64,000 bases of DNA, from UHGV virus genome UHGV-0279745. One strand, written 5' to 3'. The notes under the pieces are model-generated. The model worked only from the letters and a program-made list of their open reading frames with translations, was not told where the DNA came from and did not search any database. Every line of letters starts with the position of its first letter. Within the stretch, counting starts at the first letter, position 1. Source of the stretch: a virus. Positions 52-63,882 of this stretch are shown here, in pieces. The position numbers were made by a program, and so were the translations under genes.

Positions 52-333
52 ATGAAGCGTGAAACAATTGTATTTTGTCAAAACGGTGATGTAAAACAGT
101 ACCGGGGTAAGAAGTTAATTCGTACGTTAGATTATCGCGAAGCAAAACGTTTCGTTGAAGAGTGTGCGTGGTTAATGCATTACGAAGGGAACTATCGTGC
201 CATCTTAGAAGCGCCGCGTTTAGAACGTGCAGTTGCGCAGATGGCAATAGGTAATCCTAAGAACTGTTACCTAGCACGCAAACCAAAATACCTACAGCGT
301 GTCTCGCTAGGCAGTTTTATTGCGGGATTTTAA
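52..333 (+). CDS. hypothetical protein (93 aa)
   Basis: ORF with GGGAGA RBS upstream of ATG; followed by conserved promoter-like element. Confidence 0.6.
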   Translation: MKRETIVFCQNGDVKQYRGKKLIRTLDYREAKRFVEECAWLMHYEGNYRAILEAPRLERAVAQMAIGNPKNCYLARKPKYLQRVSLGSFIAGF

Positions 334-334
334 T

Positions 335-385
335 AAAAATAATTTCAGATATATATTACTTAGGTGAGAGTACAAAAGCTCTCAC
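335..385 (+). promoter_or_regulatory. conserved promoter-like motif (aaaaataatttcagatatatattac) followed by 7-bp-stem hairpin gtgagag/ctctcac (364-385)
   Basis: Near-identical ~75-bp copy at 36581-36655; core motif also at 32201-32226; lies ~30 nt upstream of an RBS and ATG. Confidence 0.5.
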
Positions 386-415
386 TTAACGAAAACCATT
401 TTAGGAGAATATACC

Positions 416-13488: not shown

Positions 13489-13740
13489 TTACCTCCCAGA
13501 ACACCCACCAGAACAACTACCTGAGCAGCCTGCAGAACAGTTTCCTACACACGAGTTAGAACAACTCCCCGTACAGCTTCCTGAACAGCCACCAGAACAG
13601 GTATTCGAACATCCACTACAGCCTGCACTACAACCTGATACACAGTTTGCAGAACAGGAAGAACCACAGCCGCCTGATGCGTTCCCTGTACAACCACCAG
13701 AACAGCTCGAACAGGTCCAGCTACAGCTCCCACCACAGTC
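13489..13740 (-). repeat. low-complexity Cys-codon repeat region (P2 core)
   Basis: Reiterated CSGx / CxGx codon units visible in sequence. Confidence 0.6.
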
Positions 13741-13887
13741 ATAGTGGTTGCGAGCTTGCCCACCGAATAAGTCTGCGTTGTTCGTCGCTTTCCCACGAAT
13801 ATAGTTTTGTACTGCACCCGTATTCTTCAATGCAGTGTTGTCAATGTTATTTAGCCGCGCTTGTAGCGCAGGTAATCCAATTGCCAT
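13489..13887 (-). CDS. Cys/Ser/Gly-rich precursor-like peptide P2 (132 aa)
   Basis: AAGAGGTG RBS overlapping P1 stop; ~50-aa leader then ~80-aa core with Cys at about every fourth residue (about 20 Cys). Confidence 0.7.
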   Translation of the reverse strand: MAIGLPALQARLNNIDNTALKNTGAVQNYIRGKATNNADLFGGQARNHYDCGGSCSWTCSSCSGGCTGNASGGCGSSCSANCVSGCSAGCSGCSNTCSGGCSGSCTGSCSNSCVGNCSAGCSGSCSGGCSGR

Positions 13888-13897
13888 TTTTCACCTC

Positions 13898-14150
13898 TTA
13901 GGTTGGGCCAGAACAGCCACCAGAGCAAGCACCAGAACAACCCGTAGAACAACGGCCCGAGCAAGCACCCCCACAGGTCCCACTGCAACCTGAGCAGCCA
14001 CCGGAACACGTTGAACTACATCCAGTACACTGGTTACCGCACGCAGAGGAGCAGCTACCTACACACACTGACGTACAGGTGCCCGAACAACTCGTACAGC
14101 CATGCGTACAACCGTTTGAGCACGTCCAGCTGCAACTCCCCCCGCAGTCT
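13898..14150 (-). repeat. low-complexity Cys-codon repeat region (P1 core)
   Basis: Reiterated CSGx units. Confidence 0.6.
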
Positions 14151-14296
14151 AACCGACTTGGCGTCCAACCCGAAAAAGTGTCGGCGGCATTATGTGCTTT
14201 CGACGCAACTTGCGGATCAACACGTGGGCCAGTTGCCATTTGGTTCTCTACGTTGGTGATTCGGTCACGTACATTTTTAACACTGATCGCCATCAC
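13898..14296 (-). CDS. Cys/Ser/Gly-rich precursor-like peptide P1 (132 aa)
   Basis: AAGGA RBS; leader MAISVKNVRDRI, junction RLDCGGSCSWTCS, CxxxC-repeat core. Confidence 0.7.
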   Translation of the reverse strand: MMAISVKNVRDRITNVENQMATGPRVDPQVASKAHNAADTFSGWTPSRLDCGGSCSWTCSNGCTHGCTSCSGTCTSVCVGSCSSACGNQCTGCSSTCSGGCSGCSGTCGGACSGRCSTGCSGACSGGCSGPT

Positions 14297-32180: not shown

Positions 32181-32200
32181 CGGGACGTTCCTTAGATCGG

Positions 32201-32260
32201 AATTGATTTCAGATATATATTACTTAAGTGAATAGGGGCTGAACTGGCACTTCAGCCCCT
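32201..32260 (+). promoter_or_regulatory. third copy of the promoter-like core motif (atttcagatatatattactta) followed by 10-bp-stem hairpin (32234-32260)
   Basis: Shares core with the elements at 335 and 36581; hairpin aggggctgaa/ttcagcccct. Confidence 0.45.
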
Positions 32261-32313
32261 ACGGACACGTTTCATTCGAAACGGATTGATTAAACCATTT
32301 GGGGAGACAGATC

Positions 32314-32457
32314 ATGTCTACTAAAAAGAAAGAAAGTCTCAATGAGCTGCTCAAACGGCTTAAAGACTACACTCCATTTAGTACCTGTTATCGGAAGGTA
32401 CTAAAATTTTACAGTCTGCCCCTTTATTCTGCTACTCGGGATACCGGTAGGGGGTAG
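32314..32457 (+). CDS. small basic ORF (47 aa), not in ORF track
   Basis: GGGGAGA RBS 6 nt upstream of ATG; downstream of promoter-like element. Confidence 0.3.
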   Translation: MSTKKKESLNELLKRLKDYTPFSTCYRKVLKFYSLPLYSATRDTGRG

Positions 32458-35951: not shown

Positions 35952-36530
35952 GTGTACCGATTAATAGAAATGCGAAAAGACGTTTGGTTGGAAAACCTCG
36001 TCGATGGGGAGCTTGAGGGAATAGAGCTTTCCTTACCAGAAAGAGCGGACACGGTATTGGTCTTTCTGATAAAACAGGCAGCGAAGGAACCGGTAGGAAT
36101 CTTCAGCGTGGACTATAAAGACCCACGAGGGATTCATTTACGGAACATTTGCAGTGGTTTGGAAAGCTTACCGGCTAATCCGTTCTTAAACTACGCAAAA
36201 CGTAAACTCCAGCCAGGGCAACATCTCTGGGTAGTTCTAGCGCCTGATACACGCATTATACGTGACGACCTGACTGCGTTTGTCCAAGCAACGAAAGTCA
36301 GTTTGTACAATCCTAATGCGGATCGTACCGATATGCCGTTTACAATCACCTTAGAAGACGATGGAACGCAAGAGGGTATTGAGGCAATTACGGAATTAGT
36401 AAACTCTTATCCGGTAGCGTCTATTGAGTTAGAAAACCCAAACCGATTACCGTTGGGTGATTTACTCGAATGGATTGAGCTGAATACCGAGTTCCTCATT
36501 AACTCCCGGCAGTACCGGTTCGATGTATAA
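35952..36530 (+). CDS. hypothetical protein (192 aa)
   Basis: GTG start with GAGGTGG RBS; terminator downstream. Confidence 0.6.
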   Translation: MYRLIEMRKDVWLENLVDGELEGIELSLPERADTVLVFLIKQAAKEPVGIFSVDYKDPRGIHLRNICSGLESLPANPFLNYAKRKLQPGQHLWVVLAPDTRIIRDDLTAFVQATKVSLYNPNADRTDMPFTITLEDDGTQEGIEAITELVNSYPVASIELENPNRLPLGDLLEWIELNTEFLINSRQYRFDV

Positions 36531-36534
36531 CATC

Positions 36535-36567
36535 GGTGGGGGTAAACCCCCCACCTTTTATTTTTTT
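36535..36567 (+). terminator. rho-independent terminator
   Basis: ggtggggg-taaa-cccccacc followed by T-run. Confidence 0.7.
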
Positions 36568-36580
36568 GTTCGTTAATATT

Positions 36581-36631
36581 AAAAATAATTTCAGATATAT
36601 ATTACCTAGGTGAGAGTACAAAAGCTCTCAC
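36581..36631 (+). promoter_or_regulatory. second copy of promoter-like motif plus gtgagag/ctctcac hairpin
   Basis: About 95 percent identical to 335-410 over ~75 bp. Confidence 0.5.
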
Positions 36632-36660
36632 TTAATAAAACCATTTTAGGAGTATTAAAG

Positions 36661-37032
36661 ATGAAAAACGAATTATTTAAAGACCCGTTTGTTGTATTAA
36701 TGATCGTTACTCGCGCTGCCACTAACCCAGAAAACCTGAAACGTTTACTTACTAACGAAGCATACCTTATCGAACAGCGTGACGCGCAGTTAGCCAAACC
36801 GCACGCTGAAGGCCAGGCGAAAGACCTTATCTCTATTTTCCGTAACGAAGAATGGCGTAAAAACAACGAGCTGTCCGACAACTTGACGGTTGCAATTGCA
36901 AAACTCTTGACACTGTTCAATCTCGACAAAGACATTAACCAAAGCCTTTCTACAGAAGAACGTCTGGAAATGATAAGAGGTATCGGAGATAGTTATACAC
37001 AGATTAAAGCATTCCCCAACACAGTTATTTAA
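36661..37032 (+). CDS. hypothetical protein (123 aa)
   Basis: ATG after conserved leader ttttaggagtattaaag. Confidence 0.7.
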   Translation: MKNELFKDPFVVLMIVTRAATNPENLKRLLTNEAYLIEQRDAQLAKPHAEGQAKDLISIFRNEEWRKNNELSDNLTVAIAKLLTLFNLDKDINQSLSTEERLEMIRGIGDSYTQIKAFPNTVI

Positions 37033-37078
37033 TTTCATAATTTGTGGGAATTTCCCCATAACCCGAAGGAGCATTTCA

Positions 37079-37540
37079 ATGAAAACCTTTATCACATTCT
37101 TAATAACCATTTTAACTTTCGGCCTCAATAGCGCACACGCCGCTATCAACAGCTGGGAACAAATACAAAACCCTGGGCAGGCAGTTTACGAAATCGAGGA
37201 CACCGCCGGAAACGGACTGTCTATCAACTGTGACACAGAAACTGCGAATCGCAAATTTTACGGTCGCATGGTTTGGTATTACGGTGAACCCGTAGGTGCA
37301 ACTAACGCGGAAGATAACACGATGGATATTGTCGTAAACGGCAAAACCTATAACATCCCTACCGTGGACGGTAGTGACAAAGCAGAACACGCTTGGGTTG
37401 CTTTCGTTAAAGCTATCGGTAATGCCAAAACTTTCAGTGTGAGTATCAATGGTAACGATGCCGCTAACTTTACCGTAGAAGGCGAACGTCTGTCTGAAAC
37501 TTTCTTCCAAAACTGTGGACACACCCGTCCTAACAAATAA
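37079..37540 (+). CDS. small secreted protein (153 aa) with Sec signal peptide
   Basis: MKTFITFLITILTFGLNSAHA then AINS; GAAGGAG RBS. Confidence 0.7.
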   Translation: MKTFITFLITILTFGLNSAHAAINSWEQIQNPGQAVYEIEDTAGNGLSINCDTETANRKFYGRMVWYYGEPVGATNAEDNTMDIVVNGKTYNIPTVDGSDKAEHAWVAFVKAIGNAKTFSVSINGNDAANFTVEGERLSETFFQNCGHTRPNK

Positions 37541-44737: not shown

Positions 44738-45235
44738 ATGTTAACGGTACGTAAAGAATCTGAAATTGGTAACGATCTTTTTAATGCGCCCGAAGACTAT
44801 AAAGTCGTTACCATTAATTGCGTAGGAGCGATGGGTCGCGGTATTGCACTCGCGTGTCGTGAACGCTACCCCAACCTTTACCAGGATTATCGTAAGCGGT
44901 GTCGTGAAAACGAAATTAAGATTGGAAACGTTTACGTTTACTCTGACGAAAAGTGTATCTTGCTCCCCACGAAAACCCATTGGCGCTTAAAGTCCCAGGT
45001 TTCTTATGTTACTGCGGGCATTACCGCACTAGCGGATTGTGCTGAGGATCTGGATACCAGCGTTGCTATCCCTCCACTGGGAATGGCAAACGGGTGGTTA
45101 GATTCCTGGGAAAGACAAGAAATCTTTTTGTGGCTTTACAAAAAACTTGAATCAAGGAGACAACACTACACGTTATACTTACCTGATAAGTTGTACCAAG
45201 AAGCAGAGTCATTAATTCCAAACTCTTTTAAATAG
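44738..45235 (+). CDS. macro-domain-like protein (~165 aa); start uncertain
   Basis: VVTINCVGAMGRGIALA resembles the macro-domain VNAAN...GGGVA motif; AIPPLGMANGWL resembles the second macro motif. Confidence 0.55.
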   Translation: MLTVRKESEIGNDLFNAPEDYKVVTINCVGAMGRGIALACRERYPNLYQDYRKRCRENEIKIGNVYVYSDEKCILLPTKTHWRLKSQVSYVTAGITALADCAEDLDTSVAIPPLGMANGWLDSWERQEIFLWLYKKLESRRQHYTLYLPDKLYQEAESLIPNSFK

Positions 45236-45335
45236 ATATTATCATTAGGGCACACAACAAAGGAGTATTAGCTGTCCGCGCCGTCATTTCGTCTTACGGA
45301 ATACGGAAATGTATAAATCCAACTGGAGAAACAAA

Positions 45336-46034
45336 ATGTTTCGTATCTTCTTTCTTTTACTGGTAACACTTTTCGCGTTTAACGCACAGGCGTCAACGTC
45401 AACGCCACATTCTAAGCATCAGCGTGAGTTTGCACAAATCCAACATCGGTTCGAAAAAGTCAGCCCGTTAATTGTGGAAATCTCACGAAAGCAGGGCGTT
45501 GATCCCAAGCTGATGATTACGCTGATTTATCGTGAATCGCGTTTTGATCCCAAGGCTTACAACAAAAGCTCACGAGCACATAGCCTGGTACAAATGCTTC
45601 CAAGTACCAAACGTAATCTGCTAAAGCTTTATGGAAAAGAATTAGGTCTTAGTCAGAACGCCGATTTGTATAATCCGCGCAACGCTGTTTTGCTGGCTAC
45701 CGCGTATGTTAAACATCTTGAGAAGGGGTTAACCAAACGACTCAAACGCAAGCCCACCATGGCTGAAATTGCGTTAGCTTACCACTGGGGTGAAAGTGGC
45801 GCTCACACGCGAATCAAAAGCAAATCTCGAGCAGCACAACGAGAAATGGCAGGCTTTATGAAAGACGCCGCGTTCTATAGCGCGAAAATCGATGTGCCTG
45901 TTGTTGTGGGCTCGGCCCCACGTCAGCTTGCGTTTGCGAAGAAAACACCACGTCAGATTCAACTGGCGGAAGTTAGTAGAATTTGGGATACGATAAACAC
46001 GAGTTTTCCAATCAATAGAGGAGTTACCCTTTGA
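45336..46034 (+). CDS. secreted lytic transglycosylase (SLT-domain) protein
   Basis: Signal peptide MFRIFFLLLVTLFAFNAQA; YRESRFDP, SLVQMLPST and AYHWGESG motifs typical of SLT domain; GGAGAA RBS. Confidence 0.65.
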   Translation: MFRIFFLLLVTLFAFNAQASTSTPHSKHQREFAQIQHRFEKVSPLIVEISRKQGVDPKLMITLIYRESRFDPKAYNKSSRAHSLVQMLPSTKRNLLKLYGKELGLSQNADLYNPRNAVLLATAYVKHLEKGLTKRLKRKPTMAEIALAYHWGESGAHTRIKSKSRAAQREMAGFMKDAAFYSAKIDVPVVVGSAPRQLAFAKKTPRQIQLAEVSRIWDTINTSFPINRGVTL

Positions 46035-54068: not shown

Positions 54069-54730
54069 TCGTTTATAGTGAGGTCTTGTCAAAAGCCCCC
54101 CGGTTTTTACAAACTCACTTTATGTATAACGCACGGCAGTATTGGGGCTTTAAAGCCCCTTACTCCGAAGATTGGGAAGTTGTGGAAAAGTTAGCATTTG
54201 TGTTTTCTCTTTCGTTGTTGTGGGAGATCATTGCACTATACAACGCGGGTTGTGATATCCCGGAGAACGGCTTTTTCCAACAACACCTATTCCAAAAATT
54301 CACAGCATCGGTAGAAAATCATGAAGTGCGCAAGGAGTGTATCGGCTACGCAGAGCATTCTGAAGAATTGAGAAAGATTTCCAAATTAGTTATCACGCGG
54401 ACATGGGCTGAATTCGAAACTTACCCCGAAAAAATAATTTGGTTTAATCGTGAACAGTTTATTAAAGAGGCAGTCAGTCAACATCCCGTTCGACTAATCG
54501 TGTTAAAGCCGTCAGATCTCGCCTTACGCCACATCTATTCGTCTCCAGAGGAAATCGTTTTTTCCTCTGGAACAACAGATTATGGTATTTTTAAACAAGG
54601 CGATTCTTGGATTCTTCCACACGATTTAGACGGGTATTTGCTCAGTAGCGATCAAATACATTCGGGTTATGACTCACAGGTGAAGGAGTTTACAGTCGAT
54701 CCTTTTTTCGCTAAAAATATTCTTAGATAG
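54062..54730 (+). CDS. hypothetical protein (222 aa)
   Basis: AAGGAGC RBS; overlaps upstream stop. Confidence 0.65.
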   Translation: MLIVYSEVLSKAPRFLQTHFMYNARQYWGFKAPYSEDWEVVEKLAFVFSLSLLWEIIALYNAGCDIPENGFFQQHLFQKFTASVENHEVRKECIGYAEHSEELRKISKLVITRTWAEFETYPEKIIWFNREQFIKEAVSQHPVRLIVLKPSDLALRHIYSSPEEIVFSSGTTDYGIFKQGDSWILPHDLDGYLLSSDQIHSGYDSQVKEFTVDPFFAKNILR

Positions 54731-54766
54731 ATATTATCCAGGTGTAACACCATTGGAGTTATTAAA

Positions 54767-55507
54767 ATGCTAAAAGTTTATGTCCCTCAATTACAACGTA
54801 TCAATCCCTCGTTGTTCGAGGGAATCTTTTATAAAATTTGGCCACAATACTTCAATGAACGTTTGAAAGACCCAAGGTGGTCGACCGTACAAGGAGAATT
54901 CTTTTATACCGCACAAACCGCCTGCACAGGTATTTTCACTCAGTTCATTGGAGAAATTATTAACGCCGTCAACACTAACCGAACTGTCGACCTACGTGAC
55001 GTTACAGTAGACCTCTCATCAATCTACGATAACTACGATTGTGATGATGCTGTGTTCGAACACTTTTCTGTTGAAGACGTTTGGGAAGCAGTGTACCAGT
55101 GGTTAGAGTATTACGTGAATTACCTACTCTCCCCAGAGATGTTAGAAACCTTCAACAAAGCACTCTTTCCTATTTATAACGACTTACTCAACGTTAAACA
55201 AACAAAGAACCTGGTTGGGTTCTGGTATTCGACCTACGACGCCGAATGTAAGTTGTGGGAAAAAGAAATGATTGCTTACGGGATAGAACGGGGAGACTAT
55301 GTTGAGATTCACTGTGGTTTCTGGCCATTCAGTCACTACGAGAACGCACGGCTTGGTATCTCACGATTGTGGTCGTTTTATCTCTGTGAAGCTACGGGCG
55401 TTATTTACCTTGAAGACAGCGGCGCACAAATCCCTAACGGTACTGTTGTAACATACTGCCAGATTCGTGAAGATCGGGGTCGGCCAATTTATCAGGAGTA
55501 CGTATAA
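54767..55507 (+). CDS. hypothetical protein (246 aa)
   Basis: Conserved leader ggagttattaaaATG. Confidence 0.65.
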   Translation: MLKVYVPQLQRINPSLFEGIFYKIWPQYFNERLKDPRWSTVQGEFFYTAQTACTGIFTQFIGEIINAVNTNRTVDLRDVTVDLSSIYDNYDCDDAVFEHFSVEDVWEAVYQWLEYYVNYLLSPEMLETFNKALFPIYNDLLNVKQTKNLVGFWYSTYDAECKLWEKEMIAYGIERGDYVEIHCGFWPFSHYENARLGISRLWSFYLCEATGVIYLEDSGAQIPNGTVVTYCQIREDRGRPIYQEYV

Positions 55508-56577: not shown

Positions 56578-57066
56578 ATGAACTTAAATCATAACTTCGA
56601 TATTCGTGACACCGATTTCGTACATGAATTTCTCAATAACGAAACGCGTGTACGAAAAGAAATTGAAGAAAAGTTGACTCCGTTGGTTGTAGACACTCCC
56701 TGGATGGCGGACTACGCCGCGTCCTACTTTTCTTCTCAGAGCTTATTTGGATACATATTTATCATACTTGACTTCTTCGATCCATCAAGCAAGCGCATAA
56801 CAGAAACATACGTTCGGCAACGCCTACGCCACGGTCGCAACGAGTTCTTAAAGAAAGTTTCTGATGCGTACCACATGGGTCGATTCCCTACTCCGCTAGT
56901 CCCTTATACAGAACCGGAATGGGATAAATTTTATACCCGGATTTGGGTTGAAGACTCTCTCTTGAACGAAATCGTAGAAATCATCAAGCGTAACGAAAAC
57001 CAACTTGCTCTGCAACTATGGGAGTGGCTAAAAGCTAATTATCCTGATTACGTCAAAATCGACTAA
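56578..57066 (+). CDS. hypothetical protein (162 aa)
   Basis: ORF tightly packed after previous gene. Confidence 0.65.
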   Translation: MNLNHNFDIRDTDFVHEFLNNETRVRKEIEEKLTPLVVDTPWMADYAASYFSSQSLFGYIFIILDFFDPSSKRITETYVRQRLRHGRNEFLKKVSDAYHMGRFPTPLVPYTEPEWDKFYTRIWVEDSLLNEIVEIIKRNENQLALQLWEWLKANYPDYVKID

Positions 57067-57072
57067 TAGACA

Positions 57073-57103
57073 CCCTAGCTTCGGCTAGGGTTACTTTATT
57101 TTT
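57073..57103 (+). terminator. rho-independent terminator
   Basis: ccctagc-ttcg-gctaggg followed by ttactttattttt. Confidence 0.65.
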
Positions 57104-57125
57104 AACCATTTTAGGAGAATAAACC

Positions 57126-58052
57126 ATGTATTTGTACAAAAGTAAAAAAGTAAAAGGTATTAAAGACTGCCTTAGACAAATGGGGTCTCAGCATCTTGAA
57201 AATGTAATGGAAGAAAACCGAATAAAGGAAAATCCTGTCTCGAAATGGATAAAAAAGAATCGTAACCATTTAACCAATGCCTTTATACCTTACGACGCTG
57301 AGTTAGGTCTCAAAGATCCCCGTTCCCTTCACGCACAAACATTAGCAATTGGATGGCTATACGGTGGTGCTTCCTTAATATCCAACCAAGCACTTAGAGA
57401 ACTTGTTTTCGAGACTGAGATGCCCAGTAAATTCCCTGAAGAATGGTTGGACTTTATACCTACCTGGACTGTGGCAATCGACGTAGGTAAAGAGGATGAG
57501 ACTTTCTTTCTCGGCTATCGAAAAAACGGGAATAGAAGGTTTATCATAATTGCTACAAATACTGATTACGGGTTAACAGAAGGCGTTACCACAATTGCCA
57601 CTTGTTCGTTAGAGCTTCGTAGTGCAGGAAACGGGCTTGTGGAAATCGACTATGCCGACGGTGTGGAGAACGAACAAGAAAAGATGCTATGGTTATCTCT
57701 GGCCAAAGCCGCTACTTCGATGATATTTCTGTGCACGCTAATCCCGCCCAATTACAGGGAGTCTTTTAATGATATTAAGTTCAAGGAAATCAAAAAGAAC
57801 GGTAGTATTAGTTACGACGTTAAACCTCGTGAACGCGATGTTAAGATAGATATCACGCCAGGACAAGTGAATTATCTAAAAGGGTTTAACACTGACTTGA
57901 AAACCATGCAGGGTATCAAACATGCTAAGGCTGCCCACATCCGTCGCGCTCACTGGCGCAGATATTGGGTCGGCCCTAGAAATGGTGAAAGAAAAAGAAA
58001 ACTTTGTTGGATTCCACCTACATTTGTCCGTGGCTACGTACCCCACAATTAA
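57126..58052 (+). CDS. hypothetical protein (308 aa), paralogue of 58077-58976
   Basis: Leader ttttaggagaataaaccATG; C-terminal AHIRRAHWRRYW motif. Confidence 0.7.
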   Translation: MYLYKSKKVKGIKDCLRQMGSQHLENVMEENRIKENPVSKWIKKNRNHLTNAFIPYDAELGLKDPRSLHAQTLAIGWLYGGASLISNQALRELVFETEMPSKFPEEWLDFIPTWTVAIDVGKEDETFFLGYRKNGNRRFIIIATNTDYGLTEGVTTIATCSLELRSAGNGLVEIDYADGVENEQEKMLWLSLAKAATSMIFLCTLIPPNYRESFNDIKFKEIKKNGSISYDVKPRERDVKIDITPGQVNYLKGFNTDLKTMQGIKHAKAAHIRRAHWRRYWVGPRNGERKRKLCWIPPTFVRGYVPHN

Positions 58053-61731: not shown

Positions 61732-62031
61732 ATGCGTTATCAAACGGAGATTGTGGAACGCTTAAGTGAAGGATTGGCAAGTGTTAATTTAGAAACAGCG
61801 GCCGAATTTCGTGAAGCCTTCACTCACCCGTTTCCCGATCTGGAATCCTTTTGTTTAAAGGTCGCTGAGTATTACTCGAATCTATTAGTACGTTACGGGT
61901 ATGCGCCAGTACGTTCCGAACTTCCTGAAAACACGGAAGCTATCAGCTACTGGATTGACCTGCTTGAAGCAGAAACGTTATCCAATTTACGTAAGGCGGT
62001 AGACAATGAAACTCGAACCAGCGCGGCGTAA
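61732..62031 (+). CDS. hypothetical protein (99 aa)
   Basis: AAGGAG RBS. Confidence 0.55.
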   Translation: MRYQTEIVERLSEGLASVNLETAAEFREAFTHPFPDLESFCLKVAEYYSNLLVRYGYAPVRSELPENTEAISYWIDLLEAETLSNLRKAVDNETRTSAA

Positions 62032-62674
62032 AAAGGCGGAAGCCTACGCCTTACAAATCTTAAAGTTGGTAGACCCTTCTGGCATTAATGCTGAAGCCGC
62101 GAAGAAAGCCTTCGCACGAATGACCGACGAACAGTTTAACCGACTTCGTAACGGTTTACCTATTTACAACCCGGTGGGAAGTAAAGTCGAAATTGACCAC
62201 CTGCGCAATATCGAGGTGTGCAAAATTCTCGGGGTAAACCTGGAGCAACGACTCTGGTTAACAGAACCAAAAACGGGTGTTTATCACCGTACTCGTTACC
62301 CTCACTTAGTCTTACGCTTGCCTGTCCGTCGTCAGACACAGATGCAAGAAAAGAAAATGGCGGTTGCGAAAAACGACAAAGTTCGCGATAAACTCTCCGG
62401 TCAAGTCGTCGGACCTTCCAAAGCATCCGGGGTGTCCTTCCCAGAGGCATACATCATGTATTCCGATGGTCACGACTGGACACTGAAAGAGTTCTTGTGG
62501 GCGCGTGGTGGTAACGACGCACTACAACGTGCTTTCTATCAATCTCTGCGCCAAACCGGTAAAGGGCGTATTGATTTGCCTGGAGCGGAGCGAACGAGTT
62601 CTAAAGCAACGCGTACGTGGTCAGCGTACCTAAAAGCGATGCATATCGGTAACAACATAGGCCATCCGTCATGA
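62006..62674 (+). CDS. hypothetical protein (222 aa)
   Basis: ORF overlapping neighbours. Confidence 0.6.
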   Translation: MKLEPARRKKAEAYALQILKLVDPSGINAEAAKKAFARMTDEQFNRLRNGLPIYNPVGSKVEIDHLRNIEVCKILGVNLEQRLWLTEPKTGVYHRTRYPHLVLRLPVRRQTQMQEKKMAVAKNDKVRDKLSGQVVGPSKASGVSFPEAYIMYSDGHDWTLKEFLWARGGNDALQRAFYQSLRQTGKGRIDLPGAERTSSKATRTWSAYLKAMHIGNNIGHPS

Positions 62675-63811: not shown

Positions 63812-63882
63812 TCTTACTACCTCAATTTCAAAAAGAAGTCAGACAGATATTATCTACGTGAGACATTCTTTAGGAGTGAATT

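Follow-up and report, generated by a model that had tools for sequence, protein, structure and literature searches.

A repeated promoter-hairpin module in an SPN3US-like jumbo phage: a probable virion RNA polymerase early promoter with a 5' stem-loop

Why do two stretches of about 75 bp, lying some 36 kb apart in one viral genome, carry almost the same sequence? We studied this question for positions 36581-36660 of the window, i.e., the whole 64,000-nt stretch of the virus genome UHGV-0279745 that was analysed. A preliminary description had seen there the second copy of a promoter-hairpin-RBS module from 335-410 and had attributed the likeness either to selection on the element itself or to recent duplication. 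We refer to the copies as A (335-407) and B (36581-36652).

Extent of the repeat and the phage that carries it

The pairwise alignment of both copies shows 70/73 identical columns (95.9%), with T360/C36606, C390/T36635 and one 1-nt gap as differences. When extended to 410/36655, the identity is about 94.7%. That is, the roughly 95% identity over some 75 bp described before is reproduced and lies far above chance: the 25-mer and 27-mer halves of the repeat each occur exactly twice in the window, while none is expected from 100 dinucleotide shuffles. Also the second part of that description, a shared hairpin and RBS leader, holds, since the hairpin GTGAGAG-tacaaaag-CTCTCAC (364-385 in A, 36610-36631 in B), the segment CCATTTTAGGAG and the leader AAAACCATTTTAGGAG are unchanged between the copies. 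The similarity stops one base past AGGAG, with the start codons following at ATG 416 (A, 164-aa ORF) and ATG 36661 (B, 123-aa ORF). Paralogy of the downstream genes was rejected as source of the likeness, given that the two proteins are unrelated and the similarity ends at AGGAG.

What does not hold is the number of copies. In the window we count six occurrences of the promoter core TYAGAYAKATATTAYY, always on the plus strand, compared to an expectation of 0.89; besides A and B, it is found at 32209, 45228, 54723 and 63839. Among these core sites, the hairpin loop and the leader are common to copies A and B only. The respective features are collected in Table 1.

Table 1. Coordinates of the two copies, the related promoter elements and the neighbouring features in the window.
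Feature	Position	Strand	Remarks
Copy A predicted vRNAP early promoter	332-365	+	PWM 65.2; core 343-359; overlaps stop codon of ORF 52-333
Copy A hairpin	363-386	+	predicted +1 G366
Copy A leader	387-415	+	Shine-Dalgarno 403-407, ATG 416
First gene of copy-A operon, 164 aa	416-910	+	two tandem ~80-aa repeats; no family match
Third class-I promoter copy	32195-32261	+	core 32207-32223; different, stronger hairpin 32233-32261
Intrinsic terminator GGTGGGGGtaaaCCCCCCACC + T-run	36535-36566 (36535-36555 + T-run)	+	terminator scan; ends operon of gene 35952-36530
Copy B predicted vRNAP early promoter	36578-36611	+	PWM 67.6; A-rich upstream part, core TTTCAGATATATATTAC 36589-36605, 6-nt spacer CTAGGT
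Copy B hairpin GGTGAGAGT-acaaaa-GCTCTCACT	36609-36632	+	transcribed part 36612-36629: 6-bp stem, 6-nt loop
Predicted +1 (G), copy B	36612	+	6-nt rule of phiKZ, phiR1-37 and AR9; helices begin here across 52 promoters
Lineage-specific insertion, 448 bp	36618-37065	+	copy-A-type loop, 3' arm and leader; 123-aa gene; short 3' spacer
Copy B leader	36633-36660	+	TAATAAAACCATTTT, Shine-Dalgarno AGGAG 36648-36652, spacer TATTAAAG
123-aa gene, phrog_27024 (function unknown)	36661-37032	+	lineage-specific duplicate; SPN3US RefSeq gp017 homolog
Class II (GATAGATATTAT) promoter copy	54709-54743	+	precedes gene 54767-55507
vRNAP subunit gene (C-terminal beta fragment)	62006-62674	+	83% aa identity to SPN3US gp218, tblastn
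Class II promoter copy	63825-63859	+	precedes ORF with ATG 63882

Judged by its sequence, the window is part of an uncultured SPN3US-like jumbo phage. A 1440-aa ORF shows about 52-54% identity to a virion protein of Salmonella phage SPN3US and relatives, and a tblastn comparison of 68 window ORFs with the full SPN3US genome reveals collinearity with SPN3US at about 114-192 kb, with amino acid identities of 23-83%. The syntenic genes comprise radical-SAM genes, giant virion proteins, a baseplate protein, an SMC-like protein, a transglycosylase and RNase H. Also listed in Table 1 is the counterpart of SPN3US gp218, which is the C-terminal beta fragment of that phage's virion RNA polymerase (vRNAP; PMC5105663); here, a SPN3US RefSeq tag N translates into the original gene number 266 minus N. 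The window's gene product is predicted to be part of the enzyme that would read the promoters discussed below. Among the cultured phages of the collection searched, there is no close match at the DNA level. Uncultured relatives with 83-98% nucleotide identity are found in IMG/VR, namely 3300029126_000001, 3300045988_113438, 3300045988_078609, 3300045988_095954 and 3300014543_000002 (below abbreviated to the distinguishing part).

Some repetitive sequence of other kinds was seen along the way. The 164-aa product of 416-910 shows the repeat pattern NELV.K..YKFTV...GFR.RSID.G.S, belongs to no PHROG family, has no SPN3US homolog and was found only in the four closest uncultured relatives. Imperfect CCAGAACAGCCA-type repeats occur at 13496-14023 within the minus-strand ORFs 13489-14296 and would be Pro/Glu/Gln-rich if translated.

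The promoter element and its class

A position-weight scan of the window reports five strong sites, for which the terminal TATTAC/T ends at 359, 32223, 36605, 54737 and 63853. The conserved part, AAAAATAATTTCAGATATATATTAC-YTAGGT-GA, is found five times in the window and twelve times in SPN3US, and all of these sites (5/5 and 12/12, the latter all on the plus strand) are intergenic and precede genes on the same strand. SPN3US site 15626 heads the operon with an nvRNAP beta gene, and site 165699 is the positional ortholog of copy B. Conservation reaches much further: in SPN3US, the SPFM phages and jumbo phages of Escherichia, Proteus and Erwinia, each genome has several intergenic stretches that match the core and its surroundings, some 40 nt in all (AAAATAATTTCAGATATATATTACYTAGGTGA), with 90-97% identity, while the proteins of these phages are only about 50% identical to those of the window.

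Within the window, the promoter layout is ...GATATATATTAC, followed by the 6-nt spacer YTAGGT and GA, i.e., TATATTAC/T-6N-G(+1)A. This can be compared with the AR9 consensus AAATATATATTAT-(6N)-G(+1); transcription in phiKZ and phiR1-37 also starts 6 nt past the element (PMC5312081). In the first 50 kb of phiKZ we find TATATTAC-6N-GA at eight sites, one of them upstream of the nuclear-shell gene. More generally, a conserved AT-rich motif lies upstream of the early operons in every RNAP-encoding jumbo phage and, where transcript mapping was done, it was confirmed as the vRNAP early promoter (PMC7598289; PMC8244752; PMC11512511). Since this layout is also that of the vRNAP early promoters mapped in phiKZ and AR9, the window element should be a phage early promoter and not a sigma-70 promoter. 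We thus consider it likely that the module is an early promoter of the phiKZ/SPN3US vRNAP type with an attached 5' hairpin, and that the particular likeness of A and B stems from recent copying. The anatomy of the preliminary description, promoter followed by hairpin and RBS, is retained by this reading, with the promoter being of the vRNAP type rather than generic or of the host.

With the early promoters of phiKZ, 201phi2-1, phiR1-37 and AR9, the element shares the conserved AT-rich sequence ending in TATATTAC/T and the start at a G 7 nt further on, followed by A. Further common traits are the A/T-rich upstream part and a number of at least a dozen copies per genome, which lie between genes in one orientation and in front of operons whose early genes are mostly hypothetical. 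The respective genomes likewise encode a virion multisubunit RNAP. Differences are found in the flanks, which are clade-specific here (TTTCAGA upstream, YTAGGT-GAGA downstream), in the stem-loop located at the predicted +1 of most SPN3US-clade copies, and in the predicted 5' UTR, which is longer in the SPN3US clade (about 50 nt).

That the element is instead used by the host's sigma-70, or is a dispersed repeat without function whose copies are similar through recent duplication alone, appears highly improbable to us. It is AT-rich and includes a TATATT hexamer, such that copy A matches a sigma-70 promoter at 9/12 positions (TTAATA-16-TATATT). However, copy B shows no plus-strand match, and the matches of both regions are no commoner than in shuffled sequences, for which reason the sigma-70 reading was rejected. 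Furthermore, the invariant CAG, TAC and GTGA lie outside sigma-70 logic, phages of the phiKZ type develop independently of the host RNAP according to the literature, and the element is 90-97% conserved across genera with only about 50% protein identity, always in one orientation and upstream of genes.

Following from the assignment to the vRNAP class, the +1 is predicted at G366 in copy A and at G36612 in copy B. The polymerase reading the promoter, the timing and the exact +1 are assigned by analogy to the phages named above, and no transcriptome of any SPN3US-like phage was found in our literature search. In both copies A and B, the complementary bases include the 3 nt that precede the predicted +1 (GGT/ACT), such that the real start could be 2-3 nt earlier.

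Besides, we observed a second sub-class of the promoter, ending in ..GATAGATATTAT, in which a T to G change of the AT-run co-occurs with a change of the final C to T. Its sites are 54723-54738, 63839-63854 and 45228-45243 in the window and 4439, 15626, 72498, 72696, 92552 and 109905 in SPN3US. It is also frequent in Erwinia-phage contigs in the form of ACGGATAGATATTAT or TTGGATAGATATTAT. The +1 hairpin is weaker or absent at these class II sites, which might represent a different strength or timing class.

The hairpin at the predicted transcription start

The full hairpin of copy B folds with -12.6 kcal/mol. When folding is restricted to the sequence from +1 on, -8.3 kcal/mol remain (z = -4.7) and the Shine-Dalgarno sequence is mostly unpaired. 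Among the orthologs of copy A in four relatives, the stem is kept and the loop varies. The hairpin of site 32223 begins 4 nt past the predicted +1 and shows a compensatory G:C to A:T change in the relative L034.

A scan of IMG/VR with the 16-mer core provided about 60 instances in jumbo contigs. Nearly all of them are followed by a hairpin, with stem and loop varying by site; example stems are GAGAGT/GCTCTC, GATAGA/TCTATC, GAGATTA/TAATCT(C), GAGCATTGA/TCAATGCT and ATGATAC/GTATCAT. To quantify stability, the first 32 nt of 51 non-redundant promoters were related to 3'-shuffled versions of themselves, which results in a mean z of -1.4, compared to -0.3 for control windows from the same loci (Mann-Whitney p = 3e-6). 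Such z-scores with fixed 5' arm are more informative than comparing MFE values with those of coding-region controls, which discriminate only weakly. In the profile of mean pairing probability, positions 2-11 stand out as 5' arm and 17-23 as 3' arm, with the loop at 13-15.

For pair statistics, an ungapped MAFFT alignment of the hairpins turned out to mix registers and is thus unfit for pair counts, so we used a covariance-model-fitted alignment together with a promoter-anchored analysis. In the former, which is fitted to the structure and hence biased towards it, 89.8% of the cells of 57 sites are paired, compared to 35-58% when the pairing partners are slid. None of 500 shuffles reaches the covariation of this structure-fitted alignment, in which G-U pairs are frequent.

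The promoter-anchored analysis asks where the helix begins when folding from the predicted +1. It does so exactly at +1 in 26/52 promoters and within 3 nt in 34/52. Upstream of +1, the helix run has a mean of 0.68 compared to 1.24 with permuted flanks, i.e., there is no extension above chance. A helix that ends at +1 and not beyond is the pattern expected of selection on RNA rather than on duplex DNA. The feature is not universal, since a clear +1 hairpin is missing in about a third of the clade's promoters; across sites, the stem comprises 5-12 bp and the loop 3-11 nt, and the distance to the start codon varies as well.

Outside the clade, none of the eight annotated AR9 early promoter sites examined has a hairpin at +1, and for phiKZ we find it at 2/8 sites, so that the idea of a hairpin common to vRNAP promoters in general was rejected. 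As AR9 does without and phiKZ mostly without it, vRNAP initiation does not require such a structure, and the +1 hairpin is an extra of this clade on top of the conserved design of vRNAP promoters. We found no description of it in the literature searched, a search that extended to sources other than the original promoter-prediction papers. A known RNA family was rejected too: no Rfam family matches the window at gathering score, the best matches near copy B having E = 0.55 and 0.93.

Two single sites are recorded here for their structure. The phiKZ early promoter of the nuclear-shell (chimallin) gene, at 45567-45648, is among the few of that phage to have a strong hairpin at the predicted +1, with z about -3. 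At SPN3US 165684-165780, i.e., the ortholog of copy B, the +1 hairpin is followed by a terminator-like hairpin GGCTACCttcgGGTAGCC with T6 and only then by the first gene; this region could give rise to a short early RNA or act as attenuator.

Might the hairpin act in initiation or promoter escape, at the level of DNA or nascent RNA? It could then be extruded from the non-template strand in the style of the N4 vRNAP, or serve as promoter-proximal pause site or attenuator. We regard such a role as very unlikely. Copies A, B and a few others do pair upstream of +1 into GGT, many Erwinia-phage copies have TTTT past the 3' arm, and a true terminator-like hairpin follows the SPN3US locus-B promoter. 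Family-wide, however, the helix ends at the predicted +1, the lengths of stem and loop and the distance to the start codon are all variable within the ranges given above, G-U (G-T) pairs are common, and AR9 as well as most phiKZ early promoters work without a hairpin. The window copies lack a U-tract (in copy B, the 3' arm is followed by CUUAA) and the terminator scan calls the upstream terminator only, such that an intrinsic terminator or attenuator was rejected for them. With the N4 hairpin promoters (PMC4496689), the module has in common a virion-carried polymerase, early genes and a small promoter-linked hairpin. In N4, however, the hairpin forms in the DNA upstream of +1, its geometry is fixed, and it is used by an unrelated single-subunit RNAP, whereas the present hairpin extends from the predicted +1 with variable geometry and belongs to a phage with a multisubunit vRNAP.

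We favour instead that the hairpin is a 5'-terminal stem-loop of the mRNA, probably with a stabilising role. The 5' UTRs of the E. coli ompA type carry a stabilising 5' hairpin with 0-3 unpaired nucleotides at the extreme end, located upstream of an accessible Shine-Dalgarno sequence, and the stem sequence of such stabilisers is free to vary if pairing is kept. The module resembles them in its near-terminal hairpin (relative to the predicted +1), in the compensatory change and in the open Shine-Dalgarno sequence. It differs in being tied to a whole viral promoter class and not to one gene.

The hairpin could also be read by some factor rather than being a passive stabiliser. Given the same vRNAP promoter, hairpin and semi-conserved leader (TAAtCGAcCATT...AGGAG) would then form a recognition signal, which might serve the handling or export of early mRNAs from the vesicle, the binding of a phage or host protein, or a timed shut-off. 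This we deem unlikely, although the hairpin is clade-specific and not general to vRNAP promoters, and early transcription occurs within a membrane vesicle according to the literature. Within one genome, the leaders have more sequence in common than the Shine-Dalgarno element, for instance at SPN3US 65425, 94251, 113998 and 223289 and at 387-407, 36633-36652 and 57104 of the window. On the other hand, loops and stems differ without restriction in both sequence and length, more in keeping with a structural than with a sequence-specific role, and there is no candidate binding protein. Since the leader motif is also found without promoter, it may merely be a favoured translation-initiation region.

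Such a promoter-less occurrence of the copy-A-type leader AACCATTTTAGGAGAATAAACCATG is found within 57066-57128, right behind the terminator 57066-57100. It suggests that the leader is a preferred sequence for translation initiation, put to use again whether or not the promoter accompanies it.

Taken as a stabilised transcript, the module would work as follows. The multisubunit vRNAP, which the virion carries and which enters the cell together with the DNA, would recognise the AT-rich TTTCAGATATATATTAC and start 7 nt downstream of the element, using the G of GAGAG, i.e., G366 for copy A and G36612 for copy B. The mRNA would thus open directly with the 6-bp stem-loop, followed by an unstructured leader of about 30 nt with AGGAG placed 8 nt before the ATG. 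Most likely, the 5' stem-loop would shield very early mRNAs from 5'-end-dependent decay (RppH/RNase E) in the enterobacterial host and leave the ribosome-binding site free.

The locus-B insertion and exchange between promoter modules

Why, then, do A and B agree beyond the promoter? The promoter core is identical at many sites, while loop and spacer are free to vary. For instance, copy A has the loop tacaaaag both in the window and in 3300029126, but tacgaaag in 078609, ttcagtta in 113438 and ttcagcta in 095954. The near-identity of A and B beyond the promoter is thus explained by a recent copying event in this lineage.

The comparison of locus B among the relatives supports this. According to the blastn break points, 36618-37065 is missing in 113438, and reading the sequences of three further close relatives reveals the same uninterrupted promoter-to-gene arrangement. 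All five relatives have the terminator before the locus-B promoter. In the four relatives without the insertion, this native terminator and promoter are followed by a different hairpin, GAGAGTTAAgaTTAACTC; the locus-B hairpin of these relatives and of SPN3US is of the type GAGAGTTAAga(ga)TTAACTC. The four lack the 123-aa gene at locus B, such that the hairpin adjoins the ortholog of 37079-37540, which encodes a signal-peptide protein. In SPN3US, the locus-B promoter leads into a homolog of gene 37563. Being present in the window and 3300029126 only, 36618-37065 is a derived insertion.

Elsewhere in the same genomes, the inserted 123-aa gene has a paralog with 57-60% identity, the ortholog of SPN3US RefSeq gp017, which sits directly behind another promoter-hairpin module. 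This ancestral locus of the gene is expected some 57 kb downstream from copy B in the present phage, by analogy with 3300029126. The identity is unevenly distributed: copy B and the paralog agree to about 97% from the Shine-Dalgarno sequence to codon 15, compared to about 60% for the remainder of the gene. Copy B is thereby a mosaic of four parts, i.e., (1) terminator and promoter native to locus B, (2) hairpin and spacer of the copy-A type, (3) AGGAG-TATTAAAG-ATG with the first 15 or so codons, which are paralog-like (about 97%), and (4) the rest of the gene with about 60% identity to the paralog. The left junction falls within the roughly 50 nt common to all modules, the inner one at or past AGGAG. 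The likely course of events is that the duplicated 123-aa gene was placed right behind the locus-B promoter and that its 5' UTR, i.e., hairpin and spacer, was copied from the copy-A module, with a left crossover within the promoter/5' arm common to the modules and a right one at the AGGAG Shine-Dalgarno sequence.

With this, the two explanations offered initially as alternatives both hold, each for a different part of the repeat. Selection is reflected in the promoter core and in the existence of a +1 hairpin, which are conserved across genera with covarying stems. Recent duplication accounts for the identical loop and spacer, a copying limited to the lineage of the window and 3300029126. Recombination between the two loci, which had also been named as a possibility, is seen as exchange of a patch or cassette, namely the locus-B insertion with its left breakpoint in the shared promoter/5' arm. 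It is not seen as deletion or inversion between A and B, since checking the relatives for rearrangements at the repeats yields this one insertion and otherwise collinear genomes with an A-B spacing of 36.1-36.5 kb; a large A-B rearrangement was accordingly rejected. Another indel that was examined, 2734-2896 (vs L019 3140-3638), is not at a promoter.

The latter corresponds to a length difference of about 340 bp from the closest relative and lies inside a coding region with repeated domains (gene 2164-2931). A further indel of about 100 bp is found at 32272-32373 (vs L039 5283-5286), 48 nt downstream of the promoter at 32223. There, the window and 113438 have a Shine-Dalgarno sequence and ATG (32313) of an ORF of about 47 aa, which is deleted in 3300029126. 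Between the 32223 promoter and the large gene that follows (32602), the 5' UTR measures about 380 nt, which is an unusual length.

By analogy, the history of locus B resembles the modular shuffling mediated by PeSLs. In T4-type phages, these short terminator/early-promoter repeats lie among accessory genes and are points of homologous exchange, such that the repeat flanks the gene insertions and deletions that distinguish relatives (PMC2839356, PMC4122927). Copy B shows the same composite of terminator and promoter (copy A, overlapping the end of ORF 52-333, does not), and there is an indel with its left breakpoint in the repeat, here as one clear event of 448 bp. In contrast, the promoter of a PeSL is of the sigma-70 type and not of the phage-RNAP type found here, and its stem-loop is an upstream terminator while ours lies downstream, within the transcript. 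Given the different promoter type and stem-loop position, we consider the module an analogue of PeSLs and not a member.

A more far-reaching view would combine both aspects: +1 stem-loop and semi-conserved leader as a dedicated 5' tag on the vRNAP transcripts of the SPN3US-like nucleus-forming clade, and the module doubling as a landing pad for new early genes. The tag could, e.g., mark transcripts for vesicle exit, favour their translation or shield the 5'-triphosphate against host RNA-targeting defences. We note this as a speculative and rather improbable extension of our favoured reading, i.e., a vRNAP early promoter with a probably stabilising 5' hairpin.

While the promoter class itself is well known, the clade-wide +1 hairpin and the modules as recombination points for gene gain are modestly new. 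For this uncultured jumbo phage and its relatives, TTTCAGATATATATTAC-6N-G provides an annotation rule that marks early operons, and with it comes a precise predicted +1 for a clade without transcript maps. The module would also offer phage engineering a ready-made early-expression cassette. Concerning the biology of the family, the +1 hairpin gives a handle on the survival of very early jumbo-phage mRNAs inside their host, and the locus-B insertion points to promoter modules as places where early accessory genes are gained, like PeSLs in T4-type phages.
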